Positions 2,727 to 36,900 of a DNA stretch of 64,000 bases are shown here, piece after piece. The stretch spans positions 36,461-100,460 of the forward strand of contig CAVTNR010000019.1 of NCBI GenBank assembly GCA_963736115.1. Reading direction: 5' to 3'. Made by a program: the position numbers and the translations under genes. Position 1 is the first letter of the stretch; the number at the start of each line of letters is the position of its first letter. The stretch comes from an uncultured bacterium (GTDB lineage: Bacteria; Zhuqueibacterota; QNDG01; DTFT01). Below the pieces are notes generated by a model, which ran no database searches, was not told the origin of the DNA, and saw nothing but the letters and a program-made list of their open reading frames with translations.

Positions 2727-3455
2727 ATGCGGATTTCACCCCACATCCACGCTGTGACCGGTCTGGGCTTTATTCCTCCCTGGTCGGTGAACGCGGGATT
2801 CATCGTGGGAGCGGAACGGACCCTGGTTGTGGACACCGGGCCCTCCGCCAACGCGGCCCGGACCATACTGGGGTATGCCCGGGCAGTCCGTCCGTCGAAC
2901 ACCCTCCTCGCGGTCAATACGGAACGCCATACGGATCACATGCTCGGCAACGGTTTCTTCCGGGCAAACGGGATAGACGTGTACGGCCATCCTGCCATAC
3001 ACCGGACGGCCGCGGACCTCGCCGCGGAAATCGAGGAGCTGAACCGCTGCATACCCCAGCCATTCCGCAGGGAGAGAGGCGAGGCGGCCGTGTTCTTCAA
3101 CGGCACGACCGTCGAGAATCCGAACCGGCCCGTCGAAGCGGAAACGCTTCTGGATCTCGGCGCCTGTGAGGCGCGGCTCATCCCCACGCCCGGGCATACA
3201 GCCTCGAATCTGTCGGTGTTCTGTCCGGCGGACGGCGTCCTTTTCTCGGGCGACTGTGTGGTCGCGGGTTACGCCCCGAACCTGGACGATCCCGGAATGG
3301 ACCGGCAGGCCTGGCTGGATTCACTGAACCTTCTGTCCGCGCTCCATGCGGCCGTGTTGATACCCGGCCACGGCGATGTCCTGACCGGAGACGCGGTGCT
3401 GGAGGGCATTGACCGGATGAAGAGGGAGATCGACGATCGTCTGAACCGGTCGTAA
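2727..3455 (+). CDS. MBL-fold metallo-hydrolase
   Basis: VVDTG, TERHTDH (variant of THxHxDH), TPGHT, LFSGD and IPGHG motifs. Confidence 0.9.
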   Translation: MRISPHIHAVTGLGFIPPWSVNAGFIVGAERTLVVDTGPSANAARTILGYARAVRPSNTLLAVNTERHTDHMLGNGFFRANGIDVYGHPAIHRTAADLAAEIEELNRCIPQPFRRERGEAAVFFNGTTVENPNRPVEAETLLDLGACEARLIPTPGHTASNLSVFCPADGVLFSGDCVVAGYAPNLDDPGMDRQAWLDSLNLLSALHAAVLIPGHGDVLTGDAVLEGIDRMKREIDDRLNRS

Positions 3456-3509
3456 GCGCCGGACACCTTCAAGTTGCCTGGCACCTGCGCCTGGCGTTTA
3501 AAAATTCCC

Positions 3510-3538
3510 TTGAGATCACATCGATTCCTTCGTACATT
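3510..3538 (+). promoter_or_regulatory. Putative sigma70 promoter for ndk
   Basis: TTGAGA-N17-TACATT about 45 nt upstream of the ATG. Confidence 0.45.
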
Positions 3539-3584
3539 GTGGCCGTTGATTTGAAATTATCCGGATCATTGAAAGGAACAAGGA

Positions 3585-4319
3585 ATGCAGGAGAAAGAGC
3601 TGGAGCAGACACTGGTGCTCATCAAGCCCGACGCATTGAAGAACTCTTTGACCGGATACGTGCTTTCGCAATTGTCCGAGTTCCACACCGGCCTGCGCTT
3701 CGCGGGAGCGAAAATCGTGCAGGTGAGCAAAATGCTCGCTGAGGAGCATTATGCCGAGCACCGCGGCAAGTTGTTCTTCCCCGCGCTCCTTGAATACCTC
3801 ACGGGATGCGTCCACTACCCGGATGCGCCGGCCCTCAGGCGCGTCGTCGCGTTCGTGTATCAGGGGCCGGGCGCGATCCAGAAGATCCGGGACCTCGCGG
3901 GCCCGACCAATCCGCACGTCGCGCGCGAGAAGAAACCCGGGTGCGTCCGGGCGCTGGGCACCCTGGTACCCCTCAAGTCCACGGACGGACAGACCATCGG
4001 CGAGCGCATGGACAACCTGATCCACGCCTCGGCAACGGCGCCCGAGGCCGAGCGGGAGATCAAGCTGTGGTTCAAGCCCAACGACATACCGCCGCCCATG
4101 CGTGAATACAAGTCCGTACAGTGTGATGAGCATTTCTATTTCAGGGACGGCCGACTGTACCGGAAACACGAAACGGGTTCCGTCTGCCTGCTCGCGCCCG
4201 GAGACGCGGTGTGGACCTCGGATCTGGAGGCACTGCACAAAATCGCCGAAGGCCGTGAGGCGCACTGCACACTGCAGGCCGTTGCCGCGAAGTATCTCAT
4301 CAATGAGACGAGGGAATAG
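3585..4319 (+). CDS. ndk: Nucleoside-diphosphate kinase with insertions and a C-terminal extension
   Basis: EQTLVLIKPDA, AEEHYAEH.GK.FF, GPTNP and NLIHAS (catalytic His), then EREIKLWF. About 80 extra C-terminal residues. Confidence 0.9.
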   Translation: MQEKELEQTLVLIKPDALKNSLTGYVLSQLSEFHTGLRFAGAKIVQVSKMLAEEHYAEHRGKLFFPALLEYLTGCVHYPDAPALRRVVAFVYQGPGAIQKIRDLAGPTNPHVAREKKPGCVRALGTLVPLKSTDGQTIGERMDNLIHASATAPEAEREIKLWFKPNDIPPPMREYKSVQCDEHFYFRDGRLYRKHETGSVCLLAPGDAVWTSDLEALHKIAEGREAHCTLQAVAAKYLINETRE

Positions 4320-4325
4320 AATAAC

Positions 4326-4461
4326 AGTTCATGGTTCATAGTTCATAGTTCATAAAAAAAGCTTCCGGGAATCTGAAATATCCGGGAGCTTTTTCTGTTT
4401 TTCTTATGAACCATGAACTATGAACTATGAAATATGAACTATGAACTATGAACTATGAACT
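4326..4461. repeat. Inverted heptamer tandem arrays (AGTTCAT)4 ... (ATGAACT)8 around a bidirectional terminator
   Basis: Read directly: left array 4326-4353, hairpin AAAAAAAGCTTCCGGGA..TCCGGGAGCTTTTT at 4354-4394, right array 4406-4461. Confidence 0.9.
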
Positions 4462-4468
4462 TCTCTCC

Positions 4469-4939
4469 TCACCTCCCCGCAATCCTTTCCGCAGCCTGCT
4501 CGAGATGCATTTTCTGATGAGAAACGTACGCGGGGATCAGTTCCCTGAGCGTCACCGGAGATTCCGAGCCTTCGGTCCATGCGTGATTCAGGGCATCCGG
4601 CCGCACCCGTCGGAGCAAACGCACGATGTGCAGGTTCAATGCGGACCACAGGTCAATGAGACGGATCCAGTCCCCGTCCCGGTACCCTTGAATCGCCACC
4701 CATTCCTCATTGTGCCGGGTGTAGTCCGGAAAAGACAGTTCTTTGGCATATTGAAGGCGGACGAAGCGCTGGATGTTGTTCCCAGCCGAGTCCGTGAGAT
4801 GGCCGATGATTTCCTTGACGGACCACCGTTCCTCGCTCTCCTTCGCGGAGACGCCGCTATCGGGCCATCCGTACAGGACCGGCCGCCAATGACCGACCAG
4901 TTCCTCGAGTTCATCCGCGGTTTTCAGCACGTTGTCCAT
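4469..4939 (-). CDS. DinB family protein
   Basis: WSVKEIIGHLTDSAGNNIQRF and Y..H.K.HL.Q motifs. Start refined to the ATG at 4939, preceded by GGAGG. Confidence 0.85.
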   Translation of the reverse strand: MDNVLKTADELEELVGHWRPVLYGWPDSGVSAKESEERWSVKEIIGHLTDSAGNNIQRFVRLQYAKELSFPDYTRHNEEWVAIQGYRDGDWIRLIDLWSALNLHIVRLLRRVRPDALNHAWTEGSESPVTLRELIPAYVSHQKMHLEQAAERIAGR

Positions 4940-4970
4940 TTTTACGCGAATCCTCCGATGATCGGACGCA

Positions 4971-5321
4971 TCACGGCCTGAGCAGTAGGTCCGCAACGAG
5001 GGCCGCGAACAACAGACCGAATCCCAGGCCGGCCATCCAGAATATGGCTTTCTGCCGCGCCGCCATGATCCGGACCGTCAACGTGAGGGCCTCCACCTGT
5101 TCAGCGAGTTGTTTGACCAGTTCCGCGTCCCTGCGGTCATGCGCCTCCAGCGCGGAAATCCGTTCCCGGAGCGAGGCGGTCTCATCCGAGGCCGATCCGT
5201 CCTTCCGGCCGCGCGTCGTACCCAGGAGAAGCGCTTCCGCCATCTGGACCAGCAGGGGCGCGCGCTTGAGCAGAGCCGGCCAGGGGATGGACACGAGCGT
5301 TTTGAACAGGGGAAGAGACAT
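4971..5321 (-). CDS. Hypothetical protein with coiled coil and C-terminal TM helix
   Basis: GGAGG RBS before the ATG at 5321. IPW..LLK.AP N-terminus, heptad region and hydrophobic C-terminus. Confidence 0.7.
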   Translation of the reverse strand: MSLPLFKTLVSIPWPALLKRAPLLVQMAEALLLGTTRGRKDGSASDETASLRERISALEAHDRRDAELVKQLAEQVEALTLTVRIMAARQKAIFWMAGLGFGLLFAALVADLLLRP

Positions 5322-17419: not shown

Positions 17420-20400
17420 TCAGGCCCCCGCCTTCATAAACACATCCAATCTTCTGATACCGCCTGTCCTTTCGAAAACAGCCTCGCTCCATTTGCGCTC
17501 CAGAACCAGGCCGGGTGTCTCGATTTCCCGTTCGTCCCTCATCTTCATCCGGATTTTTTCCAGGCGCGACCGGTGCAGAACCACAGGCACCTGGCAGAAC
17601 GTGTAAGCCAGAGTCCCGGCTTCCAATGCGATCTGCTCTGTTCCGCCGTCCGCTCCGATGCATTCGAAAATTTCCGGCTTTTTCAGGAATTCCGCGAAGT
17701 CCAGCAGTTCCGCGCCGAATGAAAGCTTTCCGTCCGCGATCCGAATCCCGAGTTCCGCGAGACGGATGAGAATGTCCTCCTTCACCTGGCCGGTCATGCC
17801 GGGCTGCTGCACGCCCGCGAATCCCGGCGTATGGGAATAGGGGTCCGTGGGAAATGCGCCGTACCGGTCGGGCTGCTTGTGCACGCCGATGCCTTCCCGT
17901 ATTTCGCGTGTGCGCTTCTTCAGCCGCCGGATGACGGCCGGGTCCGCGCCGGAACGCAGGGCTTCGAGAACCGCCTCCTGGCCGGCCAGGCAGAGCTTGG
18001 ACACCATGTGCCAGTAAATGCAGCCGAGTCCCTCGTACTTGTAGAATGTTCCCGAACGGCCGGTGAATGACTTGTGGTCGAACATCCGCTCATACAGACC
18101 GAGCAGGAACGGCGCTTCCTTCTGCGCCGCTTCCCGCCATTCCGGGTCTTCCAGGTTTTGAAGAGCCTTCAGAAGGTGTCCGGCGTTCCGGAAATCGGCG
18201 TTGAAGTGCAGAACGCCACTGGAGTCGGCCGTCACGATGCGGCGGTCGTTTTCAGCCGCGCATTTCCGGAGGAAGACCGATTCCCGCACTGCTTCGGCCG
18301 GGATGATGTTCTTTTCCGTGAAACGGGGGAGCCTGCGGTCCGGATACAGGAGGTAGCTGTTCTGGTCCTTGCGGTGGAGGCGGCTCGACCGGAGCGCATC
18401 CAGCACATCCGCGCATTCCTCCGCTTTGAGCAGGCCGGAGCTGAGGACCGCGACCTGGCCCTCCAGCATTTCGTACAGCCTGCGGATGGAGATCCCGCCG
18501 TCCGGCTCCACGGTCATCAGGTTATAGGCGTGGTAAAGTCCGTCCGGCCTCCGGTTGGCCCGAAGGGTGCTGTCCGCGGCCCGGAGCGCGAGGCCGCAGA
18601 AAGCGGAAAGGTCCGCGAGGCTTGTCTCCCGTTTTTCCCCGGACAGGCCTTCCGCATACAGCTTCGAACGGAATTTGCCTGCCGCTTCTCCGAACCGGTC
18701 CAGCGCTTTCCGTCTCCGGACGTCCGTCATCGGTTCATCCGGTCCGGACACGAGCGATTCGAGCGCGGACCGCGTCGCGTCGAGCCAGTCCGAGACCTCG
18801 GCCGCGAGCGGAACCGGGTCCGGGCCGGAACGGTCGAGCAGGTCCCGGAAAAAGGACAGGTACCGCCGCATGTGGCACAGGGTGACCACGGATACGCCCG
18901 ATCCGACCAGGGCGTTGTTGGCGTCATTCCATTCAGGCCTCTGGGTGTTCATCCAGATGCCGGCTTCGGGCATGAAATTCGCGAGCTTGGCGAGAAGGGG
19001 AACCAGCATTTTTTCCGCCAGGCCGGCCCGCACCCGGACGCCGTCCGGCCGTGTGAGGAATTTCCCGTCCTCTCCGATCCCGCGAACACGCTCCCGGACC
19101 CGGCCGTCCTGTTCCGCGTCGAAGCGGATGGTGTCGGCTGGATCGCGGATCAGGTCCGCGTAGGGCCGGATCCGGTAGGGCACGTCCGCATACGTGAAGA
19201 AATCACGCCGGAACAGGCCGGACAGCATGCCCGGATGATACCGGTCCGACCATTCCAGCAGGCGGAGCAGGTAGACGATCTGGTGATCGCCCCAGTACCC
19301 GATGTAGGACCAGGGATCGGCCGGATCGAGAACCTCCCAGTCGAATCCGTCGCGGGTCACGCGGTAGGGATTGTACCCGTCGGCAGTCGAGGCGTCGACG
19401 AATTTGGCGATCATGCTCTCGATGAACCCCGGGAAGCTCTGGGCCAGCGCTTCCCAGTTCTGGAACAGGTCGCGCCAGTTGCCCTGATAGTTCAGGACCT
19501 TGCGGCCGAACCTGTCCTTGATGCCGATGGAAAACAGATTCCAGGGCCTGCTGGGATCGCCGTGCCTGCGGCTGAAGGTGAGCGGAAGATACTCGAAAGC
19601 CAGGCGTTCGAGATCGGGATCCCCTGCGGACGCGGCACGGGAGAGGAGCTCCCCGTGCGGGAGCGTGACGGGAAGCGAACGGAGCCATTCCGCCTGTGTC
19701 CGGGCCAGCGGCCGGTTCGCTTTTTCGACAAAGTCGCGGAAGTCGGATGCGGTGATGGCGGTTCCGTTGTCCGGGATGCCGCCGCGCATGACATTGAACA
19801 GCACGTTTGAAAAGTGCCTGGACGCGCTGAGCCGGTCTGCCGTGGCCTGCCGGCCGTCCGCGGCCGCCACTACGGCCTCGATGCCGGCCGTGCCGGCGGC
19901 GATATCCTCCAGAATGAGCTCCTGCAGGTCCCCGGGACGATGGAGTGTCCCGGACAGGTCCGCCACGGCGGCCGAGTCCAGGCCGACGTCGGCCGCGAAA
20001 AACCATTCCCGGCCCGTGGACGGCTTGAGCAGGAAGCCGGTCGCGGCGAAATAAGCGCCCCGAACGCCGCGCATGTCTTTTTCCGGACGCAGCGGTCGGC
20101 CGCTCCTGAAGGCTTCCAGTTGCAGGGATGAAAGGATGTGTGTCGGCCGGACCAGGCCCGCGCACCAGACCGCTGTCGCGCGAAGGGATTCGCTCGGTTC
20201 GGCTTTGTCCGTGGGCACCGAACTCAGGGTGAACAGCCCGAGCCCCGTGTCCTCCAGCAGTTCGTTCTTCTTGTATCCGTCGGCAAGCGTGCTGTATTCG
20301 AGCTGAAACCGCCGCTGGATGCCGTCCGGCAGCAGGTTCTGCATCCCGTCCATAATTTCGACGCGGGCTTCGCGGCGGCCGATATTGACCAGGAACGAGT

Positions 20401-20875
20401 GCTTGATAAATCCGAACCGTTCGCCCGTCATCCAGGCGGTGCGGAAAACGAGCCCGAGATCACGGTTGACTTCCTCGAACATCAGCTTGTTGCCGGTGGC
20501 GTTCTTGTACAGATTCCGCTCCGTCCGGAATGCGGCAGCATCCCGAGCGGAAAAGGGCTCCCACACCCGGATCCGGGAACCGGACTTCAGACGGACGATG
20601 GTTTTGGAACCGGTTATTTCCGCGGAATCGTGGATCTTATCGTCGGTCACGTAGGGGAAGAGAGCGTGGTCCGGGTCCCGGCGGCCCGCGGTCAACCCGC
20701 CGTTGCTCGAAATGAACATCCAGTGGTCGGACCCGCTGACCAGACTCACGAGAAAAGGCGGCATGCGGTCGACGTTCGAAATCCGGTACCAGGATTCACC
20801 GTCGATCGTGACGAAACCGCCGGTCACGGCTTCGGCTTTTTTTGTGCTTTTTGAGGCGTTTCGGACAGACCGCAT
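17420..20875 (-). CDS. Probable GH149 beta-1,3-glucan phosphorylase
   Basis: About 1150 aa with no signal peptide. Motifs FSRRHGDPSRPWN, YQGNWRD.FQNWEAL, GYWGDHQ, NTQRPEWNDANNALVG and GAFPTDPYSHTP are recognised as GH149-like; neighbours GH17. Confidence 0.78.
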   Translation of the reverse strand: MRSVRNASKSTKKAEAVTGGFVTIDGESWYRISNVDRMPPFLVSLVSGSDHWMFISSNGGLTAGRRDPDHALFPYVTDDKIHDSAEITGSKTIVRLKSGSRIRVWEPFSARDAAAFRTERNLYKNATGNKLMFEEVNRDLGLVFRTAWMTGERFGFIKHSFLVNIGRREARVEIMDGMQNLLPDGIQRRFQLEYSTLADGYKKNELLEDTGLGLFTLSSVPTDKAEPSESLRATAVWCAGLVRPTHILSSLQLEAFRSGRPLRPEKDMRGVRGAYFAATGFLLKPSTGREWFFAADVGLDSAAVADLSGTLHRPGDLQELILEDIAAGTAGIEAVVAAADGRQATADRLSASRHFSNVLFNVMRGGIPDNGTAITASDFRDFVEKANRPLARTQAEWLRSLPVTLPHGELLSRAASAGDPDLERLAFEYLPLTFSRRHGDPSRPWNLFSIGIKDRFGRKVLNYQGNWRDLFQNWEALAQSFPGFIESMIAKFVDASTADGYNPYRVTRDGFDWEVLDPADPWSYIGYWGDHQIVYLLRLLEWSDRYHPGMLSGLFRRDFFTYADVPYRIRPYADLIRDPADTIRFDAEQDGRVRERVRGIGEDGKFLTRPDGVRVRAGLAEKMLVPLLAKLANFMPEAGIWMNTQRPEWNDANNALVGSGVSVVTLCHMRRYLSFFRDLLDRSGPDPVPLAAEVSDWLDATRSALESLVSGPDEPMTDVRRRKALDRFGEAAGKFRSKLYAEGLSGEKRETSLADLSAFCGLALRAADSTLRANRRPDGLYHAYNLMTVEPDGGISIRRLYEMLEGQVAVLSSGLLKAEECADVLDALRSSRLHRKDQNSYLLYPDRRLPRFTEKNIIPAEAVRESVFLRKCAAENDRRIVTADSSGVLHFNADFRNAGHLLKALQNLEDPEWREAAQKEAPFLLGLYERMFDHKSFTGRSGTFYKYEGLGCIYWHMVSKLCLAGQEAVLEALRSGADPAVIRRLKKRTREIREGIGVHKQPDRYGAFPTDPYSHTPGFAGVQQPGMTGQVKEDILIRLAELGIRIADGKLSFGAELLDFAEFLKKPEIFECIGADGGTEQIALEAGTLAYTFCQVPVVLHRSRLEKIRMKMRDEREIETPGLVLERKWSEAVFERTGGIRRLDVFMKAGA

Positions 20876-20889
20876 TAGTATTCCCTCAT

Positions 20890-20928
20890 GTAGGTCCGAT
20901 ATGCCGAGCGTAGCGAGGCTATCGGACA
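20890..20928 (+). repeat. GTAG-REP downstream of RAYT
   Basis: GTAG-GTCCGATATGCC-GAGCGTAGCGA-GGCTATCGGAC imperfect hairpin. Confidence 0.9.
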
Positions 20929-20932
20929 TCAA

Positions 20933-21442
20933 TTATTCCGGATTCATCCCGCGTATGCCGGGGATTTCCTTCCAACCCCATCCGAACTCGTAATGACCTT
21001 GCTTCACGAAATCAATATAACTGGAATGGGGCCATCGCTCCGGTTTGTCTGTCAATCCGTGTTTGACCGGGTTGAAATGAATGTAATCCAGATGTCTGTT
21101 TATGTCTTCATGATTTCGGATCACATGGTCGTAGAAACGATGTTGGGCGAGAGTCACGGGAGTCCTGATCTGATGATGACTCTTGAAATTGCATGTAAAA
21201 TTTCGGCGAAGAGATTGAATGATAACGGAGAGTGCGGATTGTTCCGGTTCCAAAAGAAAGTGAAAATGATCAGGCAGAATGACATAGGCATATAACCGGT
21301 GGGGATAATGTTTGCGGACTCTGGAGAGGGTGTCCATCAGGATGCCCGAATTGACCGGATCGGAGAAGATGGGTTGTCGATCATGGTTGACGCACGTTAT
21401 GAAATACACCGCTCCGATTATATGGTAACGGCGAATATCCAT
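20933..21442 (-). mobile_element. REP-associated tyrosine transposase (RAYT / TnpA-REP, Y1 HUH)
   Basis: YFIT, VILPDHFH (HUH), RFYDHVIRN, YIHFNPVKHGL and WPHSSY motifs. More AT-rich than its flanks and flanked by inverted REPs. Confidence 0.92.
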
Positions 21443-25665: not shown

Positions 25666-25690
25666 GACCCCGGGGTCAACCCCGGGGTCG
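25666..25690. repeat. GACCCCGGGGTC palindromic repeat family, copy 2 (doublet)
   Basis: GACCCCGGGGTC-AACCCCGGGGTC. Confidence 0.8.
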
Positions 25691-25707: not shown

Positions 25708-28700
25708 TCACCGGTTCACCGCCCACAGGAGTTCCACCTTCCACGAGCCATCCGCCTGTCTTTCCCGCATCGCCTTGCGGGGGTAACCCGTGGCCGTGTA
25801 TCCGTTCATGGTGAAATTCAGGCTGTAGCTCCACCAGAAGGGCACGGGGATATCCAGATGATCGCCGGTATAATGGGCGCACGCCCACTGGCGGCCGTGC
25901 CTCCATTCGATCCGGTACGGATCTTCCACCTTCACTTCGTTTTTAATCTGCACGCCCACGTCCCAGACCAGGTCCTCGGCGGGCGTAATCTCCGGACTGT
26001 AGTGGTACTGGATGAACACGTCGCCGAGCGTTTCGATTCCCCTCTTTCGGAGGTAGGATTCGAGCCTGCGGATCGCCTCGTCCTCTCCTTTCCAGTCCCC
26101 CTTGCAGGGGAGGATCAGTTCAAGACATTCCTTATCGGAACGGAAGAACACCTCGACTGGCGGGTACGGATCTTTCATGCGCTCCACGGGCAGTTCCGCC
26201 ACGAGGCGTTCCGGTTCGCGGTTCATTTCCGGAATACCGCCGGTCCAGATCAGAACCTGCGGATGCAGGATGCGGTACTGGTTGTGGTAGGCCCATGCCG
26301 CCATTTGCATTGAGAACGTCTTCTGATCGAACCCTTTCCGGTACTGGATGCGGACCACGTTCCGGACGGGAACCCGTTCGCACTTGAACGGCGGCTTTAC
26401 GGCTGCGCTGTCCGCGACGGGAAAGCCCGCTTCCCACTGCAGCTCAGTCTGGTTCACCGTCTCAACGCTGTAATACTGCCGGGTAAACGGCGTTCCGGCC
26501 GGCTGGATGCCGAGAGCCTTCAGGGTATTCAACAGCTTCTCGAACACCACCGGATGCTGGGCCAGGGATCCGCTGACCGGGAGGAGGACCGCCCAGTAGG
26601 GATTCGTCGATTCGACCCGGAAGAGAGGTTTTGAGTCGTCCGTGGCCGAAAAGCCGGAGAAAAATCCGGAAAGCCTTTCCTTCCAGCCGGGCGCGGAATC
26701 GGTAGCCTCCGCATTCCCCGTGCTGGAAACAAACGAGCCGGCCACGTCGGAATTGACGATCAGCGCCTCCGTGAATCCGCATTGCACCGCTTGCTTTTTC
26801 AGAAGTTCGGCCTCCGCAAGGGTCCGGCAGTCCCCGATACGGATCATGCGGTTCGGCGGTTCGAATATCAGGTAAACCGGCGTTTTCAATTTCGACATCG
26901 CATCGTCCCATGTCTTCCGTGCGATTTTTTCTTCGGTCGTGGAGACGAGCTGGACGCGGTATCCCCGGAGCGCCGTGGTGCGGTTGTCAGGACCGGTGGA
27001 CTCTTCAGAGAATCGGTTTCTGCCGGACGGTGTCCCGGAAGAATAGTCGGCCGGAAATCGTCTGCCCCGCGCGGCCACTGCTTCTCCGTACGCCTGCATG
27101 CCTTCGGCGAATTCCCCGACTGAAACCACAGGCATGAACCATTCGGTTTTGCGTATCCGGCCTGCGTTCCGGCGAGGGCCGTCCTCCCAGGCCTGGCCGA
27201 CCGGACCGGCGATCAGAAAACCGCTCATTAACGTCCGGGTGATAAAGGCCGCGGCCGGGAATTCCTGATCCGGCGGATACTTGAAATCCACGGCAGCGAT
27301 GGTGTCCTTCTCGAAATACCGGAGGACAAACGGCGGATCCACTCGGAGATCCGTTCCCGGTGGATTCAGTTCGCATGCGATTTCCCACTGCAGTTGGTCG
27401 GGAGTCACCTCGGACGGATTGCTGTAAAAGAGCCGGAACCACCGGTTCGTCGCCGGAAGTCCCTTCTCGCGGATGATCCGCTTCATCCGTGACCGCGCGT
27501 CGTCCAACCGGGAAAGCGGACCGGTCACCGGTAGAGTCAGGGCCAGGACGGCCTCGGTTTCCCGGAATTGAACGTCCAGTCCCGGGTAACCTTCACCCGG
27601 CCTGAATGCCTGAATCCGCATCTCAGTGTTCTGCCAGAAAGGTTTCGACCCGTCCCAGTTACGAAACACTTCCACTGCGGGCGGGAAGGCGGGAACCAGG
27701 CCCTCGGCCTGAACTGCTTCCACGAAGGCTTTCCAGGTTCCAACCGTGGTCAGCATCCCCTGAACATCCGTCACGGCCTCCCGGAGTTCTGGGATGCGGG
27801 CGATTTCGAGCGGCGGTTTCGCTTCGGCGTCCGGGGATACCGGGACTCCCACTTCCCATATGCTCCGCTCGTCCGGCACTTGCTGGCCGTCCGTCCATAC
27901 GCGGAAGAAGAAGTCCCCGCGGGGCTTGAGGCCCTGCTTCTGCATGCGTTCCTTCAATTCCGTCAGAGCCCCTTCGAGCTGGGCATTGATGCGTCCGAAG
28001 CGGGTCAGCAGGACCACCGTCCGCGGCTCCGTGGTCTCCAGCCGAATGCGGAAGTCCGCGGGTTCGGCCTGGCCGCCTTCCGTGACGTTCAGAACGACGG
28101 GCCCCTCGGTGCTGAATTGAATGGTTCGGACCGGATCGTCCGGCAGGAGGGACACGGAGCGGGGCGACATGGGCAGGAACGCGGCCGCGACGAAGAGACT
28201 CGCGCCGGCGGACGCCGCTGGAATCCACCGGCGCCGCTTCCAGACATCCTTCTCCAGCCATTTCAGCCGCGACACCAGCCGGAACGGCTCCTCGAACACG
28301 CCGAGCAGGCCGAGTCCGGGTTCGACGTTCTCGGTCAGGAGGTCCTTGGCGGTATTCAGCAGGGTGTCGCGGTATCCGCGGGTTTTTTCGCGCAGGACGC
28401 CGGCCACGCTGAGGTCGCAGCAGATTTCACGAACGTGCTTCATCTGGCGGCGCGCCCAGATCAGCAGGGGATTGAACCAGTAGACCACATGGAGCACCAG
28501 GTACAGGCCGTGCATCCACAGGTCGCCCCGCTTGAGATGGCTGAGCTCGTGCAGGAGCACATGACGGGCCTCGTCACGCGACAGATTTTTCAGATAGCCC
28601 GATGGGAGCAGCAGCACGGGCCTGAACATACCGTACACGGCGGGTGTGGCCGCGTCCGGAGCGAATACGATGGCCGGGACGCGGCCCAGCCGCAGGGTTT

Positions 28701-29247
28701 TTGCGGTTTCGACCAGCATCCGGTAAAACCAGTCCGGAACACGGTCGTCGCGGTGCAGGCGGTGCCAGCGTCTCAGGCGCGCCATTTTCAGAATCAGCAG
28801 GAAGGCGAACATGGCCATACCGCCGATCCAGACGAGAAAAACCATGGTTTTCGCGGTCAGGCCCGCGGCCGCGCTGTCCCCGGCCGGGACCGATGACGTT
28901 CCGAACACGCCGGAGAGCGGCATCCGGTCCGGGCGTCGTGCGGTTTCCGGTTCCAGCCGTACGGATGAAGCGGCAGGTACGAGCTTTTCAACCGCGGTTC
29001 CGGTCACCGCGGACCGGAGCTCCGGTTCGACGCGGGAGAATACGCTGAATGGAGAGGCCAGGGTCGGGGGCAGGAGCAGTTTCAGGAGCACCAGCAGCCA
29101 CACCGCGTACCGCACCTGCGGCCACACCCAGCGCCGGCCGGCCCAGTCCAGAACTCCGATCAGAACAATGAGCAGGCTGACCTGCCAGAACATCGGCGCC
29201 ATCCAGGCCCACCAGATTCCGGCCCAGTTATTGAGTGTCGCGGCCAT
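25708..29247 (-). CDS. BlaR1/MecR1-type M56 metallopeptidase fused to four GyrI-like domains and a SPOR domain
   Basis: N-terminal TMs, TPAVYG..RP.LLLP, HELSH.KRGD, WFNPL and REICCD. Four ~150-aa repeats each contain W(E/D)(V/I/A)G/A, with a GYRVQL..IRIG SPOR-like segment between repeats 2 and 3. Confidence 0.85.
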   Translation of the reverse strand: MAATLNNWAGIWWAWMAPMFWQVSLLIVLIGVLDWAGRRWVWPQVRYAVWLLVLLKLLLPPTLASPFSVFSRVEPELRSAVTGTAVEKLVPAASSVRLEPETARRPDRMPLSGVFGTSSVPAGDSAAAGLTAKTMVFLVWIGGMAMFAFLLILKMARLRRWHRLHRDDRVPDWFYRMLVETAKTLRLGRVPAIVFAPDAATPAVYGMFRPVLLLPSGYLKNLSRDEARHVLLHELSHLKRGDLWMHGLYLVLHVVYWFNPLLIWARRQMKHVREICCDLSVAGVLREKTRGYRDTLLNTAKDLLTENVEPGLGLLGVFEEPFRLVSRLKWLEKDVWKRRRWIPAASAGASLFVAAAFLPMSPRSVSLLPDDPVRTIQFSTEGPVVLNVTEGGQAEPADFRIRLETTEPRTVVLLTRFGRINAQLEGALTELKERMQKQGLKPRGDFFFRVWTDGQQVPDERSIWEVGVPVSPDAEAKPPLEIARIPELREAVTDVQGMLTTVGTWKAFVEAVQAEGLVPAFPPAVEVFRNWDGSKPFWQNTEMRIQAFRPGEGYPGLDVQFRETEAVLALTLPVTGPLSRLDDARSRMKRIIREKGLPATNRWFRLFYSNPSEVTPDQLQWEIACELNPPGTDLRVDPPFVLRYFEKDTIAAVDFKYPPDQEFPAAAFITRTLMSGFLIAGPVGQAWEDGPRRNAGRIRKTEWFMPVVSVGEFAEGMQAYGEAVAARGRRFPADYSSGTPSGRNRFSEESTGPDNRTTALRGYRVQLVSTTEEKIARKTWDDAMSKLKTPVYLIFEPPNRMIRIGDCRTLAEAELLKKQAVQCGFTEALIVNSDVAGSFVSSTGNAEATDSAPGWKERLSGFFSGFSATDDSKPLFRVESTNPYWAVLLPVSGSLAQHPVVFEKLLNTLKALGIQPAGTPFTRQYYSVETVNQTELQWEAGFPVADSAAVKPPFKCERVPVRNVVRIQYRKGFDQKTFSMQMAAWAYHNQYRILHPQVLIWTGGIPEMNREPERLVAELPVERMKDPYPPVEVFFRSDKECLELILPCKGDWKGEDEAIRRLESYLRKRGIETLGDVFIQYHYSPEITPAEDLVWDVGVQIKNEVKVEDPYRIEWRHGRQWACAHYTGDHLDIPVPFWWSYSLNFTMNGYTATGYPRKAMRERQADGSWKVELLWAVNR

Positions 29248-29620
29248 CCGATTCTCCTTTCTTGTCCGCGTCGCGGAGCATGCGGATCAATTCTTTGCGC
29301 TCCCGGTCGGACAGCCTGCGGTCTTCGATGAGAAAACTCATCAGCGGCGCCACGGCCCCGTCCAGCATGCGGTCGACGACGTTCTGAAGCGCGCTTCTGC
29401 GCGTGATCTGCTGATCCACCAGTGGCGTGTAGAAGCTGGTGTTCCCGCGCTTGGTTTCTGCCACGGCTTTCTTCACGGCCAGGCGGGTCAGCATGGTCTT
29501 GACCGTGGTGTACGCCCAGCGGACGTTCCCGTCCAGGGAATCGATGATCTCCCTGGCCGTGGCCGGATTCTTCTTCCACAGGGCGTTCATGATCTGCCAT
29601 TCGGCTTCGGACAGTTTCAT
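29228..29620 (-). CDS. BlaI/MecI/CopY family repressor
   Basis: LSEAEWQIMNALW and WAYTTVKTMLTRL..K motifs; overlaps the M56 gene start. Confidence 0.95.
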   Translation of the reverse strand: MKLSEAEWQIMNALWKKNPATAREIIDSLDGNVRWAYTTVKTMLTRLAVKKAVAETKRGNTSFYTPLVDQQITRRSALQNVVDRMLDGAVAPLMSFLIEDRRLSDRERKELIRMLRDADKKGESDGRDTQ

Positions 29621-29639
29621 AGGGGCTCTCCTTGTTTTC

Positions 29640-29700
29640 TACAACCGTAAAAAATATACTACATCCGTAGAAGATTGTCAAGCGATATTTTACATTTGTA
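29640..29700. promoter_or_regulatory. Three BlaI-type operators overlapping the blaI sigma70 promoter
   Basis: TACAACCGTA (29640), TACATCCGTA (29660) and TACATTTGTA (29691) fit TACA-NN-TGTA. Minus-strand TTGACA (29681-29676)-N17-TATATT. Confidence 0.8.
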
Positions 29701-29713
29701 GAAGATCGCCCCG

Positions 29714-29767
29714 GACCCCGGGGCCGCAGGTCGCACAAGCAACCCCGGGGTTGACCCCGGGGTCGGA
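29714..29767. repeat. GACCCCGGGGTC palindromic repeat family, copy 3 (triplet)
   Basis: GACCCCGGGGCC..AACCCCGGGGTT-GACCCCGGGGTC. Confidence 0.8.
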
Positions 29768-30911: not shown

Positions 30912-30927
30912 AAGTAATCCATTACTT
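30912..30927. promoter_or_regulatory. Palindromic LacI-like operator upstream of the TBDR
   Basis: AAGTAAT-CC-ATTACTT, 30 nt before the ATG. Confidence 0.55.
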
Positions 30928-30956
30928 TGGCGTTTAATTTCTACAAGGAGGCAGTC

Positions 30957-33919
30957 ATGCGGGCGCAAGGATTTTTGGATCGTCTCCAATGGAGCGGTCT
31001 GTGCCTGGTTTTTGCCGCGACCATGGCATTCGCAGGCAACACGGGAAAGATCTCCGGTGTTGTTTCGGATGCCGGCGGTCGCACCGGGCTTCCCGGAGCA
31101 AACGTCATTATTGAAGGCACCGCGATCGGGGCCGTGGCCGACCTGGATGGTCGTTTCGCCATTCTGAACGTCCCGCCCGGCATCTACCGGGTCAAGGCCA
31201 GCATGATCGGTTATCGGACGATGATCGTCCAGAATGTCCGCGTCTCCGCCGATCTCACTACCGCGCTCGACGCAGCGCTTCAACCCACCACTCTCGAGTC
31301 AGGCGAGACTGTGACCATCACGGCCGAGAGGCCGCTGATCCAGATGGACAAGACCTCGTCGCTCGTCTCCGTGAGCAGCGAAGAGATCAGGAACCTCCCG
31401 GTTCAGAGCATGAACGATGTTCTGGAACTGCAGGCCGGAGTCGTGCGGAGCGGAAACGATTTCCATATCCGCGGCGGCCGGGCAGGGAGGTGTCCTACTG
31501 GGTGGACGGCGTCGCCACCAACGAAGTGTACGGCGGCGGAAACGCCGTCACGGTCGAGCGGTCGGCGGTTCAGGAGATGCAGGTGGTCAGCGGCACGTTC
31601 AATGCCGAATACGGCAACGCCATGTCGGGCATCGTCAACCTGATCACCAAGGAGGGCGGTCCGAAATGGGAGGGACAGCTGAACGTCTATACCGGCGATT
31701 ATCTGAGCGACGACAAGGTGTATTCCGTGCTGAAGGGGGTCGGGACGCGATGGGACGCGGCGGAACAGAAAACGACGGCTGTGGAGCGTCTCGAAAATCC
31801 GCTTCGGAATTTCAACCCGACGATGAACGCCGAACTCAACCTGAGCGGACCGGTTCCCCTCACCAACCGGAAACTCTCACTGCTCGTGAACGGACGCTTT
31901 TTTTCGCAGGAGGGATACCTCTACGGACGGCGATGGTACTACCCCCAGGGGATCCGCGGCGACAGCGCGCTGGTCCCGCTGAGTCCGTACGAATCCTCCT
32001 CCGGCATGGGAAAGCTGAGCTACCGGTTGAGTTCCGGAATCAAGGCCAGTTACAGTTTGTTTCTCAACCGAAGCCGTTCGGAACACTACTACAATCACGC
32101 CTTCAAATACAATCCGGACGGGACCGCCGGCGGGAGGGGCTGGGGGAACACCCACCTGTTTTCCTGGAACCATGTGCTGTCATCCAAAACCTTCTACGAG
32201 GCCCGTGTTTCCCGCGTGCAGAGCAGTTATCGCAACTACCTCTACGAAAACGCGACCCTGTCGCCGACGTACCGCATCTATGTGATCGGCAATGAAACCC
32301 AGCCGGCGCAGATTCTGCCCTATGATCTCAATTCGGCCGCCGCGGACTCGGCGCTCGAGGCCCTGGCAATTGAGGGAAGGTCGTTCACCTACGTTCCTGA
32401 TGCCGGGACCCGCGACGGGTATGTACACCCCGATTCGCTGAGGGATCCCGCGTCCTACAGCTTCTGGCGCGCGGGCACTCAGGGAGGCCGGTCGAATCGG
32501 ACCACGTCTTACTGGATCGCCAAAATCGATCTGACCAGTCAGCTCAATCCCATCCATCAGTTCAAAGCCGGTTTGGAAGCGCGGCTGCACGAGCTGAAAT
32601 ATGACAATTACACGCTGCAGCCGGCCCGGAAGGAGGGCAAGGACGAACCCATCGTGCCCTATCAGCCCTGGGTGCCGCCGTCATCCAACATCTATCACGA
32701 TCTTTACACCCGCCGGCCGCGCGAGTTCTCGGCCTACATCCAGGACAAGATCGAGCTGAAGGACATGATCGTGAACATCGGACTGCGGTTCGACTACTTC
32801 GACGCCAACGCCTCGATGCCGGTCGATCCGCGGGATCCCAGCATCTATTCGCCGTTTCAGGATCAGTTCCTGTACGTCAATCCCGCCGCTGATTCACTCG
32901 TGGAATATACCCCCGACCAGCGACGGGCCTTCATGCAGGAAAAGGTGGGCGGTAAAACCCATTTGTCTCCCAGGCTCGGGGTCGCCTACCCGATCACGGA
33001 CCGCGGCGTGGTCCATTTTTCCTACGGGCACTTCTTCCAGATCCCCGAATTCCAATACCTGTACGCGAATCCCGACTTCAAGCTGATCGTCGGCGGCGGG
33101 CGGAACATACTCGGCAACGCCGCGCTGAATCCCCAGAGGACCGTGGAGTATGAAATCGGATTTCAGCAGCAGCTGTCCGACCAGGTCGCCGTCGACATGA
33201 CTCTTTTCTACAAGGACATCCGGGACTGGGTGGGCACGGGTCCCGTGATTGAGACGCTGAAACCCAGCGTATCCTACGCGTTGTACGAGAACAAGGATTA
33301 TGCGAACGTGTACGGTCTGACGCTGAACCTGGACAGGCGGTTCCAGGGCCATTTCGGGGCCGGACTCGCGTACGCCTTCCAGATCGCGGAGGGGACCTAT
33401 TCCAATCCCACCGACGCCTTCAACGCCCTTCAGAACCTGCAGGAACCCCGGCTGGCGATGATCCCCCTGAACTGGGACCAGCGTCACACGCTCACCGGCA
33501 TGGGGACGACCGGATTCGCGGGCTGGATCGCCACCCTCCAGTACAAACTGAGGTCGGGGCGTCCCTACACGCCGTCGTACGCGAGCGGATCGTTGGTCGG
33601 AGAGTCCACTTACAGCGGGCTCCGGGACAACAGCGGCCGCCTTCCGAACACCAGTCAGTTTGACCTGATGCTCCACAAGCGGTTCAGCGTCGGAACCGCG
33701 AACGTCGGATTCCTGGTCACCGTGTACAATCTATTCGACCAGAAGGGCGAAACCTACGTCTACACCGAGACCGGTTCGGCCCGTTACAGCGCCAATATCG
33801 ATCCGCAGACCATTCCGTACGACGCAGCGCGGGTGGGAACGGTGGAGGATTACCTGCGCCAGCCGACCTGGTTCATCCCGCCGAGGCATATCCAGGCCGG
33901 TTTCACGGTTGAATTCTAA
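30957..33919 (+). CDS. TonB-dependent receptor with N-terminal CarboxypepD_reg-like domain; one frameshift at ~31486
   Basis: GKISG.V.D..LPGANV, plug IRGGR|AGEVSYWVDG (restored by adding one G to GCAGGGAG), SGTFNAEYGNAMSG, SPRLG.AYPI and a C-terminal VEF. Confidence 0.9.
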
Positions 33920-33943: not shown

Positions 33944-36900
33944 ATGAAAAAGACCACAATCGGCTGGATCGCGGCCCTCTTCCTGGGTGTCGCCGTCCGG
34001 GCCGTCGCTCAGGACTCAATGGCCCGGCTGCATGGTGATGAAGACAACAGCGTCAGCGGCCTGCACTCGGGCAACCAGATCAAGGCCAGCTTTTACAATG
34101 ACGGACTGCTCGGCAAGCGGTACGTGGCCGTCACCGACATCGGCGGCGAATGGCCGATCAATTCAGGCCATGTCTACATCAACCAGCAGGTCATGTTTGT
34201 CGGGGCCGAGGTCAAGAACGACGAAGGCAGCACCATCCATATCGTTTCCGAGGGGAACGGATGCTCGGCAGGCAACTCCAACAACGCCGACTCGGGGGAT
34301 TCGGGCCCCAACGGCGAATGGTATTCCATGACGCCGCTTCCGGGATTCCACAATCCCCAGCCGCCGGCGGAAAAGAGCGCCAAACCCCGCATCGCCATGA
34401 GCCATTGGGAATGGTCCTGGCCGTCCAGCTGGCCCGACAAGACCGAGGACGTCACGGACCCGGGATGGCCGGGTTCCTGGAACGGGTATTTCGGCAAGGG
34501 CGTGATGAACGCGGACCAGGAAAGCATGTATTACATGGATGACTACAACAACCGGGAATTTTCATACTATCCCGATTCCACGGACACCCAGCGGCGCGGT
34601 CTGGGGCTCCGCGGGCAGGTGCGCGGTTTTCAGTGGTCCAACGTCCTGGTGGAGGACATTCTGTTCCTCCTGTACGACGTGAAGAACATCGGCACCCGGG
34701 ACCTGACCAAGATGAATTTCGGCATCATGTCGGGGCCGATCATGGGCAACACGGCGACCGGGGGCGGAAGCGAGGGCTCGGACGACGGCGGCGCTTACGA
34801 CCTCGAGATGGAGATCGGCTACCACCTCGACCAGGACAACCTCGGGTACGGCGGATGGAACGTGGGATTCCTGGGGCAGGCCTTCTTTGAGAGTCCGGGC
34901 AACCCCTATGACGGCATCGACAATGACGGGGACGGGATGAACGGCCCCGGTCCGGTCATCACCCAGAGTCTGTTCGACCCCCGTCCGGTTCAAGCCGGCG
35001 ACAACGTGATCGTGATCGACTATGTGACGTTTGCCCGAATCCATCGCGCAGATGCCCGCCGCGGGTGCTGGACATTCCGTTCCAGGGCCGCATCGCTTCA
35101 CATCGACGCGGGACAGGATCTTGTCGAGATCGCCGAACAACCTGTTCGACGACAACCTGAACGGCATCATCGACGAAAACAACGGCTCCACATTCGGCGA
35201 GGGCGACGCACGCCGTTGTCGCGGTTCCTGTACGAGGGCCTGAAATACATCGACTACTTCACGGGCGCCGGAAGCACAACAGCCTCGTTGACGAGCGGCG
35301 TGACGACGGCATCGACAACGACGGCGACTGGGACATCCTCACCGATGACGTGGGCATGGACGGCGTCGCGCGGTCCGGTGATGCCGGCGAAAAGGACGGT
35401 GTGCCCACGTCCGGAAGGGGCACGCTCTTCCGGGCGAACCGCATATCGACGTCACCGACATCAACGAGTCCGACCAGATCGGCCTCGACAGCCTTCAATA
35501 TCTACACGCCCTGGACGCTCTATCCGCTGTCGGATGACGAGAAACTCTGGACCGCCATCGCGCCCGGCTACCTGAACGCGATCGGGCAGATCGGCGACAC
35601 CGACATCCTCGTCGGTTCCGGGTATTTTCCGCTCAAGGTCGAACAGACCGAGCGGTTCTCCGTCGGCGTGATATTTTCCAGCAGTCTGGAAGATCTGTAC
35701 CGGAACAAGCGTTACGCGCAGAAGACCTATGTGGAGAACTACAATTTCTCCAAGGCTCCGATCATCCCGACCTGACCGCCGTGGCCGGCGACGAGCGGGT
35801 GACGCTGTACTGGGACGACGTGGCGGAAGGGTCCATCGATCCCATCACCGGAAAGGATTTCCAGGGTTACCGGATCTACCGGTCCACGGATCCCGGATTC
35901 AACGATATGACGTCGATCACCGACGGATTCGGATCCGCATCGTACCGGAAACCGGTCGCCCAGTTCGATCTCGAGGACGGGATCACTGGGATTCTCGGGA
36001 ATACATGTCCGCGGGGTTCATTTCTGGCTGGGCGAGGACACCGGTCTCCAGCATGTCTGGACGGATGAATCGGTCCGGAACGGTCAGAAATACTATTATG
36101 CCGTGACATCCTACGACAGTGGATCCGATTCCCTGGGCATCGCGCCGACGGAATGCTCGAAATATATCTCCATTTCACAGGACGGCGCGATTGACAAAGG
36201 GAAGAACGTGGCCATCGTGCGGCCCGAGGCGCCCTCCGCCGGATATCGGGCCAGCGGACCGGACCTCGTGCGGCTGCTGCCCGGCGGGGCGACGAGCGGA
36301 ACCGTCGAAATGCAGGTGATCGATCCCGCGCTGGTCAAGGGCGGCCATCTCTATCGCATTACCTTCGAGGAAAGCCTCAAAGTGGTCAAGAGCTTCGCGG
36401 ACACGCTGTATACGAAACGGCTGACGTTCACGGACGTCACGGCCGGGTCCGTTCTATACGGTCCCGAGGACTGGACGGGACTGGACCTGACGCTTCCCGT
36501 GGTCGACGGTTTCGAACTCACGCTTCGAAACGAGGCTTCGCTGGCGTTCGATTCGGCTTCGAGCGGCTGGAGCCGGCAGGGGCTCTACGCCTTCACCGTG
36601 ACGCCCTACGCCTATCGGGAGGAGAAGGAAGGGCCGCTGGCCCGCGACTTCGATGTGGTGTTCGGCGGGTTTGCCGGTTTCGATTCCTCCCGTACGTTTT
36701 TCAGGAGGGGGAGGGACCTGGCGGGAAAACCGGTCAATTTCACGGTCCTGGACGCGGAGACGCATGAGCGCATGCCGTTCGGCTTCTACGAGGCGGACGG
36801 GAACGACGGCGTTTTCAGCGGATACACCGTGAAAACCACGACGGACGAGATCACGGTTCTGAACAGGGGCTCGGACGGCGCCCTCCTGCCAAGCTGGGTC

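Follow-up and report, generated by a model that had tools for sequence, protein, structure and literature searches.

A 64-kb window of DNA (the whole 64,000-nucleotide stretch analysed here, positions 36,461 to 100,460 of contig CAVTNR010000019.1, assembly GCA_963736115.1) from an uncultured bacterium of the Zhuqueibacterota encodes, on its reverse strand, a BlaI-type repressor followed by a large M56 sensor protease. A preliminary description of this DNA, made from the sequence alone, had proposed a BlaI/BlaR1-type signalling unit whose sensor is composed of four GyrI-like domains and a SPOR domain. Family matches, a structural model, the promoter and the relatives of the gene pair agree with that proposal, and we consider it highly probable that the pair is a switch with a periplasmic GyrI-like sensor. 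The features of the unit are collected in Table 1.

Results

The repressor and the membrane protease

The repressor gene runs at its 3' end 20 nt into the protease gene (29228-29247), and the family assignments of the two products confirm the earlier view that a blaI gene overlaps an M56 protease gene. The repressor (P0002) scores 110.8 bits against Penicillinase_R (PF03965; cut-off 22.6), which places it in the BlaI/MecI/CopY repressor family, and its residues 2-121 match the solved structures of MecI and BlaI with E-values of 1e-13 to 2e-11. The protease (P0001) matches Peptidase_M56 (PF05569) across residues 22-303 with 136.1 bits (cut-off 31). Homologues P0003-P0010, with 48-81% identity, align along its length, P0004 without the N-terminus and P0008-P0010 without the SPOR segment.

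The membrane domain of P0001 aligns with the solved BlaR1 structure 8exp (E 5.5e-07). In this alignment H233, E234 and H237 of the HELSH zinc motif, which had been picked out in the preliminary description, correspond to BlaR1 H201, E202 and H205; D242 corresponds to D210, the E274xxxD278 pair to E242xxxD246, and Y292 to Y261. The functional roles of these BlaR1 residues are described in PMC9834060. All seven residues of the catalytic set are invariant in 9/9 homologues. Residues 308-322 are likewise invariant in the nine homologues, and by analogy they would sit at about the position of the BlaR1 autocleavage loop.

Hydrophobic segments of P0001 lie at residues 11-37, 41-70 (overlapping windows), 130-158 and 342-360. 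Lysine plus arginine number 10 versus 4 aspartate plus glutamate in the loop 155-195 and 17 versus 11 in the loop 265-345, and the 36 residues past the fourth transmembrane (TM) helix contain 2 versus 6. From hydropathy, the positive-inside counts, the BlaR1 layout and the domains of relatives, we strongly infer that P0001 is arranged like BlaR1, with the protease inside and the C-terminal 819 residues outside, that is, predicted to be periplasmic. At the position of the ectodomain, close M56 paralogues, whose membrane domains are about 50% identical, have PD40, LptD_N, secretin, PDZ or CarboxypepD_reg domains, in agreement with an outside C-terminal part; some close paralogues instead have ankyrin or LRR repeats there. 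Together with the signal-peptide-like paralogues described below, this upholds, as a prediction, the earlier claim that the C-terminal part is outside the cytoplasm. A family scan of the neighbouring genes found a TonB-dependent receptor gene and a PorV-like gene near the unit, which indicates that the host is diderm.

Table 1. Features of the BlaI/M56 unit in the window (residue numbers refer to P0001; operator sequences are given on the gene strand)
Feature	Position	Strand	Evidence
blaI-type repressor gene, 130 aa (P0002)	29228..29620	-	Pfam Penicillinase_R, E 6.3e-32
M56 sensor-protease gene, 1179 aa (P0001)	25708..29247	-	Peptidase_M56, E 1.8e-39; GyrI-like, E 1.3e-17; open frame
Sigma-70-type promoter, TTGACA-17-TATATT	29653..29681	-	11/12 consensus positions; TTGACA and box layout kept in relatives
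Operator box 1, TACAAATGTA, 5' of -35	29691..29700		30.6 bits, relatives' weight matrix
Operator box 2, TACGGATGTA, in spacer, abuts -10	29660..29669		24.5 bits
Operator box 3, TACGGTTGTA, just 3' of -10	29640..29649		22.1 / 18.3 bits, two strands
Membrane-embedded M56 protease domain, residues 1-360: four predicted TM helices, cytoplasmic zinc site	28168..29247	-	Hydropathy, lysine/arginine counts, BlaR1 8exp alignment
HELSH zinc motif, residues 233-237	28537..28551	-	Aligns with BlaR1 HEXXH; invariant in 9/9 homologues
GyrI-like repeat 1 (R1), residues about 398-550	27598..28056	-	Pfam GyrI-like 3.1e-06; SbmC Z 17.4
GyrI-like repeat 2 (R2), residues about 551-722	27082..27597	-	Pfam GyrI-like 7.1e-04; hhalign R1 98.8%, R4 99.1%
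SPOR domain insert, residues 754-841	26725..26988	-	49% identity to same-genome SPOR lipoprotein; predicted beta-alpha-beta-beta-alpha-beta
GyrI-like repeat 3 (R3), residues about 862-1018	26194..26664	-	hhalign R1 98.3%, R2 97.4%, R4 97.7%; no direct Pfam match
GyrI-like repeat 4 (R4), residues 1019-1179	25711..26193	-	Pfam GyrI-like 1.2e-06; hhalign R2 99.1%

The GyrI-like repeats

Whole P0001 matches the GyrI-like family (PF06445) in three stretches, with 64.9 bits against a cut-off of 26. When the repeats are scanned singly, R1 (28.0 bits) and R4 (29.4 bits) exceed that cut-off, R2 (20.3 bits) falls below it, and R3 has no Pfam match; R1 also matches Pfam Cass2 (0.0043). Profiles built from nine homologues connect the repeats more firmly, every pair among R1-R4 being recognised as homologous with hhalign probabilities of 96.9-99.1%. 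The stretch that separates R2 from R3 shows no relation to the repeats (0.1-0.8%). The four repeats are similarly conserved across the homologues.

An AlphaFold model of residues 361-1179, based on a nine-row alignment (mean pLDDT 57.5, pTM 0.33), has a strand-strand-helix-strand-strand duplication in each repeat. R1 (model residues 38-190) superposes on SbmC/GyrI (1jyh) with an rmsd of 2.4 for 149/155 aligned residues, followed by EcmrR (Z 16.2), STM3175 (15.5), CtaZ (15.2) and SOUL (14.0); BrlR, BmrR, Rob and Cass2 also match R1, and the matches to GyrI-like proteins span Z 17.4 to 9.7. The match to solved structures covers R1, and the fold of R2-R4 is supported by their homology to R1 and by the order of elements in the model. 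The four GyrI-like repeats of about 150 residues in the preliminary description are therefore substantiated. Relatives with two repeats match either R1-R2 or R3-R4, so the four-repeat form looks like a duplicated pair. The four GyrI-like domains of the sensor would accordingly form two pairs, separated by the SPOR domain.

The structural matches bear on whether the repeats could be catalytic. It is conceivable that one or more of them is a periplasmic hydrolase that destroys a reactive natural product, the switch thereby inducing its own detoxifier. Lin2189 (5x5m), which we take with YtkR7 and C10R6 to represent the hydrolase type of GyrI-like protein, does match R1 (Z 12.0, rmsd 3.9, 149 residues aligned), and a regulon limited to the unit itself, as described below, would suit such an enzyme. 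Binding proteins, however, match R1 better (Z 15-17 versus 12), and we regard an inducible enzyme as quite improbable.

The SPOR insert

On its own, the insert between R2 and R3 scores 12.8-14.1 bits against Pfam SPOR (PF05036), below the 21-bit cut-off, and 6/6 homologous inserts match SPOR, the best with E 6.9e-05. A better guide to its origin is a 170-aa lipoprotein-like ORF of the same genome (L013 1736-2248 (-), G000:C2), to which the insert is identical at 49% of 88 residues (E 3e-25). This lipoprotein passes Pfam SPOR with 32.6 bits (E 1.1e-07), and judging from the sequences it is apparently the donor type of the insert. The SPOR domain between repeats 2 and 3 of the preliminary description is thus supported through a Pfam-positive paralogue, and the SPOR identity of the insert derives from that lipoprotein and not from the fold.

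A separate model of the insert (82 residues, pLDDT 66.2) has the element order beta-alpha-beta-beta-alpha-beta. Foldseek returned no match for it at E <= 0.001, the SPOR domain of CwlC (1x60) standing at rank 6 with E 0.017 and a TM-score of 0.56-0.58. VIA-align returned generic ferredoxin-like matches with a best Z of 8.4, among which the FtsN SPOR domain (1uta) is at rank 49 (Z 6.2, rmsd 2.5, 74/77) and many unrelated domains equal or exceed the SPOR matches. A profile search of PDB sequences with the insert found only CwlC (E 0.95). Pfam TYW3 also appeared on this segment (E 1.2e-04 to 1.4e-03, below its cut-off) and was taken as spurious. We presume that the pair Q766-x-x-S769 of the insert resembles the binding residues of FtsN.

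The insert is conserved in all six carriers, with 85% mean column identity. Matches to the ectodomain at E <= 1e-10 occur in 68/167 genomes of the phylum, about 52 of them solely through the SPOR segment, which in those genomes lies in small open frames of 137-266 codons. The segment is absent from P0008-P0010 and has no match in M56-GyrI genes outside genus g1. Such a restricted distribution points to a recent, genus-level acquisition of the domain.

Both parts of the sensor have a bearing on the idea that the unit answers wall damage or attack by a competitor, with the GyrI-like clefts binding a bacteriocin or toxin peptide or a protein, or with the SPOR domain reporting denuded peptidoglycan. 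The conservation of the insert in its carriers would fit, as would the peptidoglycan-related M23 domain of the only other M56 protein in the genome. SbmC, the top structural match to R1, confers protection from microcin B17, a peptide, and from the protein CcdB, which likewise counts toward such a sensor, and the GyrI-like cleft of ExiB binds the glycine-zipper region of a toxin (PMC12744356). Set against this, SPOR is absent from most of the family and so is not the family's sensor, and the characterised proteins among the top GyrI-like matches (EcmrR, BmrR, CtaZ, STM3175 and BrlR) mostly bind small molecules. Relatives of the unit also add SnoaL/NTF2-like domains, for which small molecules are the usual ligands or substrates. 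We regard an envelope or protein sensor as improbable, though less so than an inducible enzyme.

Promoter, operator boxes and their distribution

In gene-strand order, the region 5' of blaI contains box 1, the -35 element, box 2 abutting the -10 element, box 3 and a ribosome-binding site, and the three boxes were correctly described as overlapping the promoter. The pattern TACANNYGTA is found in the window only at 29640, 29660 and 29691, which gives four matches, since one of the boxes is palindromic and is found on both strands, where 0.33 are expected; four matches were reached in 1 of 100 shuffles. We take TACAnnTGTA to be the box of the BlaI/MecI/CopY family.

The preliminary description had suggested scanning the genome for the operator. 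In the 3.34-Mb assembly there are 34 TACRNNYGTA sites, and their sole cluster is the promoter of the unit. We also built a weight matrix from 19 sites of eight relatives, excluding the studied window and the near-identical locus L016, and the three top matrix sites of the genome are the three boxes. The next-best candidates, C21:4522 (20.4 bits) and C27:162850 (18.7 bits), lie inside ORFs and were set aside. The region of G000:C21 at about 3000-5200 is strongly AT-rich, with AT-rich ORFs, in a genome of 60% G+C, and may be foreign DNA. Among 167 genomes of the phylum, a tally that takes in the unpublished genome G162 (used for no other claim), a strict double box occurs in 16, once in each, compared with two genomes for a reversed-pattern control; in eight genomes with an M56-GyrI gene, the sole strict double box sits at that unit. 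No second operator of this kind was found in the genome by the TACRNNYGTA and matrix scans of the 87%-complete assembly, and the switch would control only itself, as far as these scans can see.

A purely signalling role must be weighed against such a narrow regulon. In that case the GyrI-like array would only detect, and BlaI would control other genes elsewhere, as in CenIR, which controls multiple cell-envelope genes (PMC13492132). The incompleteness of the assembly leaves space for it, one palindrome suffices for a BlaI dimer, the genome has five strict single TACANNTGTA sites, and in 3/14 loci the unit has a gene for a TonB-dependent receptor close by. Five single sites are, however, fewer than the roughly 19 given by a rough composition-based estimate, and the four outside the promoter score below 14 bits with the family matrix. 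The position of the two best non-promoter operator sites inside ORFs, the eight relatives whose only strict double box is at the unit and the absence of a neighbour gene conserved across the 14 loci all speak for self-control. We consider a pure sensor unlikely, though it is the alternative that we take most seriously.

A family of M56-GyrI units

A word-indexed search found only eight relatives of the ectodomain. HMMER, run exhaustively, retrieved 74,513 proteins at E <= 0.001, almost all of which were matched through the M56 domain; the match extends into the ectodomain in the top 17. Among 16 top relatives scanned, 12 combine M56 and GyrI-like domains, one is a GyrI-like-only fragment and three are M56 proteins without a Pfam GyrI-like match at E <= 0.001. 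Multi-repeat ectodomain matches are present in 16/167 species genomes of the phylum, the studied genome included. The search for the same architecture in other genomes, which had been put forward with the preliminary description, thus uncovered a small family of M56-GyrI units within this uncultured phylum, of which the unit is a member.

The organisation of the unit is kept in this family. A blaI gene lies directly 5' of the M56-GyrI gene, usually overlapping it, in 12/12 loci with upstream DNA, two further loci being cut by contig ends, and two or three TAC-N4-GTA boxes on a TTGACA promoter show the same layout in 10/11 loci; in L020, the eleventh, the gene start was probably called wrongly. 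ORF clustering identified no neighbour gene common to 14 loci beyond the unit. 'Cluster 1' (5 loci), considered as a conserved output, proved to be merely a T9SS sorting/FlgD_ig tail on unrelated proteins. The free-standing GyrI-like relatives P0130, P0068 and P0014 are without signal peptides and look like truncated gene fragments.

Some relatives depart from the two-gene form. L022 (5651-11201) and L023 (4055-9533) each have a single blaI gene with two M56-GyrI genes in tandem behind it (740/969 aa and 731/964 aa), an arrangement in which one repressor may serve two sensors. In L024 (8700-9653), L026 (2979-3449) and L025 (6119-6664; this copy partly masked) the C-terminus of the M56-GyrI protein is a DUF4440/SnoaL-like domain, and one or two small DUF4440/SnoaL-like paralogues with hydrophobic, signal-peptide-like N-termini are encoded just 3', a pattern in which the sensor module is also supplied in trans. 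Those N-termini agree with a C-terminal part of the M56 protein that is outside.

Conservation on this scale bears directly on the possibility that the gene pair is decaying or non-functional, or that the repeat pattern arose by chance. The neighbours of the unit do look frameshifted (the receptor gene at 30927-33919), as might be expected in a decaying region. The 1179-codon frame is nevertheless open and aligned by the homologues, the catalytic residues are invariant, and the promoter and boxes are kept in 10/11 loci, all of which contradicts decay or chance; we find it barely credible.

Neighbouring genes and side observations

No beta-lactamase family was detected among the 11 neighbouring ORFs scanned, as the preliminary description had stated, and an Rfam scan of the window found no RNA family at its gathering score. 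The TonB-dependent receptor gene is split in two overlapping frames (window 30927-31643 and 31490-33919, + strand); its counterpart in L016, from the same genus, is a single ORF of 997 aa. The 543-aa ORF at window 33944-35575 corresponds to a 1141-aa ORF in L016. Frameshifts or assembly errors probably account for both the split and the shortened gene. At window 17420-20932 (-) a 1170-aa ORF without a Pfam family adjoins an IS200-like Y1 transposase ORF (20933-21442, - strand), and this pair is syntenic in the relative L015.

Short palindromes, GACCCCGGGGTC, flank the unit at window 29714-29765 and at about 25668-25690 (G000:C19:62128-62140). The motif ACCCCGGGGT has 48 copies in the genome, compared with about 9 expected, in 17 clusters, several of which consist of a hairpin followed by a T run, which gives the element a REP-like or terminator-like appearance. 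A similar palindrome pair lies 5' of the second blaI gene, on contig C12. This gene is part of the only other BlaI/M56 pair in the genome (L014, G000:C12:247500-252500; ORFs 2867-3253 and 1386-2870, - strand), in which the protease has 494 aa and a C-terminal Peptidase_M23 domain; the promoter of the second blaI has different TAC/GTA boxes with another spacing.

Discussion

We propose that the gene pair is a self-repressed two-gene switch of the BlaI/BlaR1 type, in which a signal at the periplasmic GyrI-like array derepresses the operon, and we would put the probability of this explanation as a whole at roughly 0.55. The preliminary description had named non-GyrI models of the repeats, a cytoplasmic C-terminus and an architecture already characterised as outcomes that would count against it, and none of the three was found. 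In our model, BlaI dimers on the three palindromic boxes would cover the strong promoter, leaving the operon almost silent. The M56 protein would cross the inner membrane four times, and the SPOR domain would hold its periplasmic part to peptidoglycan. One or more of the GyrI-like pockets would bind a small molecule, hydrophobic or aromatic in kind, or else a peptide, and ligand binding would activate the zinc protease across the membrane. The protease would then cleave the dimerisation helix of BlaI, most probably just N-terminal to the conserved aromatic residue F96, and the cut would derepress the operon.

The individual steps differ in how far precedent supports them. Activation of the cytoplasmic zinc site by an outer-domain signal, with cleavage of BlaI as the result, is inferred from the precedent of BlaR1 (PMC9834060). 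The scissile pair N101-F102 of Staphylococcus aureus BlaI aligns without gaps with F96-L97 of P0002, and S95-F96 is one residue away. An aromatic residue (F or Y) is present at the place of F102 in 11/11 partner BlaI proteins, N-F itself in one. The autocleavage site of BlaR1 is S-F (PMC9834060), which makes S95-F96 of P0002 a reasonable substrate. The kind of ligand is deduced from the GyrI-like fold, and a peptide or a protein is possible by the precedent of ExiB (PMC12744356); we give about an even chance to a small-molecule or peptide signal that the GyrI-like domains bind.

The preliminary description had read the unit as a xenobiotic sensor or a self-inducing drug sink. Either version may apply, and the operator result, with the unit as the only target, fits the sink. 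Since no other operator of this kind was found in the genome, we lean towards a sensor of small molecules in which the induced protein itself is also the effector, as a binder, although by itself the effector role has in our view less than an even chance. In its fullest form, with the operon as the sole target, a toxic periplasmic natural product would induce a strongly expressed, wall-anchored four-pocket protein that soaks it up as an inducible periplasmic sink or possibly hydrolyses it; this we think somewhat less likely again. The strong promoter, the triple repression and the self-only regulon fit an inducible binder or enzyme without proving one, and protection by sequestration has been reported for GyrI-like proteins (PMC10414762, PMC11721078).

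Several points weigh against the proposed switch or parts of it. The ligand, its binding, the cleavage of BlaI and the expression of the operon are all predicted steps. With an assembly that is 87% complete a target promoter could be missing, and a single degenerate box would escape the operator scans used. The ectodomain model is weak enough (pLDDT 57.5, pTM 0.33) that pockets and domain packing are unreadable in it, and among the repeats the match to solved structures covers R1 only. Wall anchoring is inessential to the family, given that the SPOR insert is absent from P0008-P0010 and from relatives outside the genus. P0002 does not conserve the exact N-F bond of staphylococcal BlaI, a stoichiometric sink would be unusual as a membrane protein, and GyrI-like clefts can bind proteins too, as in ExiB (PMC12744356).

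M56/BlaI switches are very common outside staphylococci and almost none has a known signal (PMC13492132). In the unit described here the predicted sensor has a fold whose binding of drugs and natural products is well understood, and the signal is therefore experimentally approachable. It would be the first GyrI-like domain shown working outside the cytoplasm. If the self-only regulon holds, the unit would exemplify regulation in which sensor and output coincide, and if the sensor is truly the effector the unit would act as a self-titrating device for periplasmic resistance, a logic not known to have been described for BlaI/BlaR1 systems or GyrI-like proteins. The M56-GyrI family could also supply modular periplasmic ligand sensors for engineered reporters.

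Comparison with known systems

The unit resembles BlaR1/BlaI and MecR1/MecI of S. aureus and Bacillus licheniformis (8EXP-8EXT; PMC9834060) in placing a repressor and an M56 protease in one self-repressed operon, with TACA/TGTA palindromic operators on the promoter. The protease shares with BlaR1 four (here predicted) TM helices, the HEXXH...EXXXD zinc site, the equivalents of D210 and Y261, and a sensor past the last TM helix. Unlike BlaR1 and MecR1, it has no penicillin-binding sensor, and 819 residues of GyrI-like and SPOR domains take its place. The NCBIfam model blaR1_generic reaches 111.4 bits against a 400-bit cut-off and covers model positions 22-270 of 585 only, and a Pfam scan of P0001 detected no transpeptidase family; with only the N-terminal part matched, P0001 is an M56 protease and not a beta-lactam sensor. 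In further contrast to the staphylococcal systems, the host is diderm, no resistance gene lies under the operator, and the N-F cleavage dipeptide of S. aureus BlaI is replaced by S-F (or F-L).

M56 proteases with other sensors are known as a class. PMC13492132 reports about 15,000 M56 proteins in 254 domain architectures, with the penicillin-binding domain in only about 6% and a BlaI within five genes in 96%. BlaI-paired M56 systems without a transpeptidase-type sensor include CenIR of Clostridioides difficile (PMC13492132), PvmSR of Pseudomonas aeruginosa (bioRxiv 10.64898/2026.08.03.742534) and, cited in both papers, mycobacterial BlaI/BlaR. The sensors of CenIR, PvmSR and mycobacterial BlaR are short, disordered or missing, whereas the sensor here is large and folded and consists of domains with known ligand-binding families. 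No GyrI-like architecture is named in the passages of PMC13492132 consulted, and neither 'GyrI' nor 'SPOR' occurs in two of its supplementary files.

R1 has the same fold as SbmC/GyrI, BmrR, EcmrR, Rob, STM3175, CtaZ and Cass2. Known GyrI-like proteins are usually cytoplasmic and either stand alone or carry a DNA-binding domain of the MerR or AraC type. The repeats described here differ in being four tandem copies, predicted to be periplasmic and fused to a membrane protease, and no extracytoplasmic GyrI-like example was found in the accessible parts of the literature on periplasmic, secreted or signal-peptide GyrI-like proteins. The SPOR insert is like the domains of FtsN, DamX, DedD, RlpA and CwlC in its predicted beta-alpha-beta-beta-alpha-beta order and its Pfam-positive paralogue, and is unlike them in lying in the middle of a sensor array instead of forming the C-terminal end of a division or lytic protein.

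The earlier suggestion that no example of this architecture has been described is borne out in part. Literature on BlaR1 with GyrI-like, GyrI with M56 and SPOR with BlaR yielded no description of an M56-GyrI-SPOR architecture; on the other hand, M56 proteins with non-penicillin sensors are published (PMC13492132), and homologues are auto-labelled by one source as 'signal transducer with metallopeptidase domain/DNA gyrase inhibitor Gy...'. What is known, then, is the class of M56 proteases with non-penicillin sensors, and what is new is its GyrI-like/SPOR version: the family of units, their conserved layout of promoter and boxes, operators that appear restricted to the unit itself, and a SPOR insert confined to a single genus.

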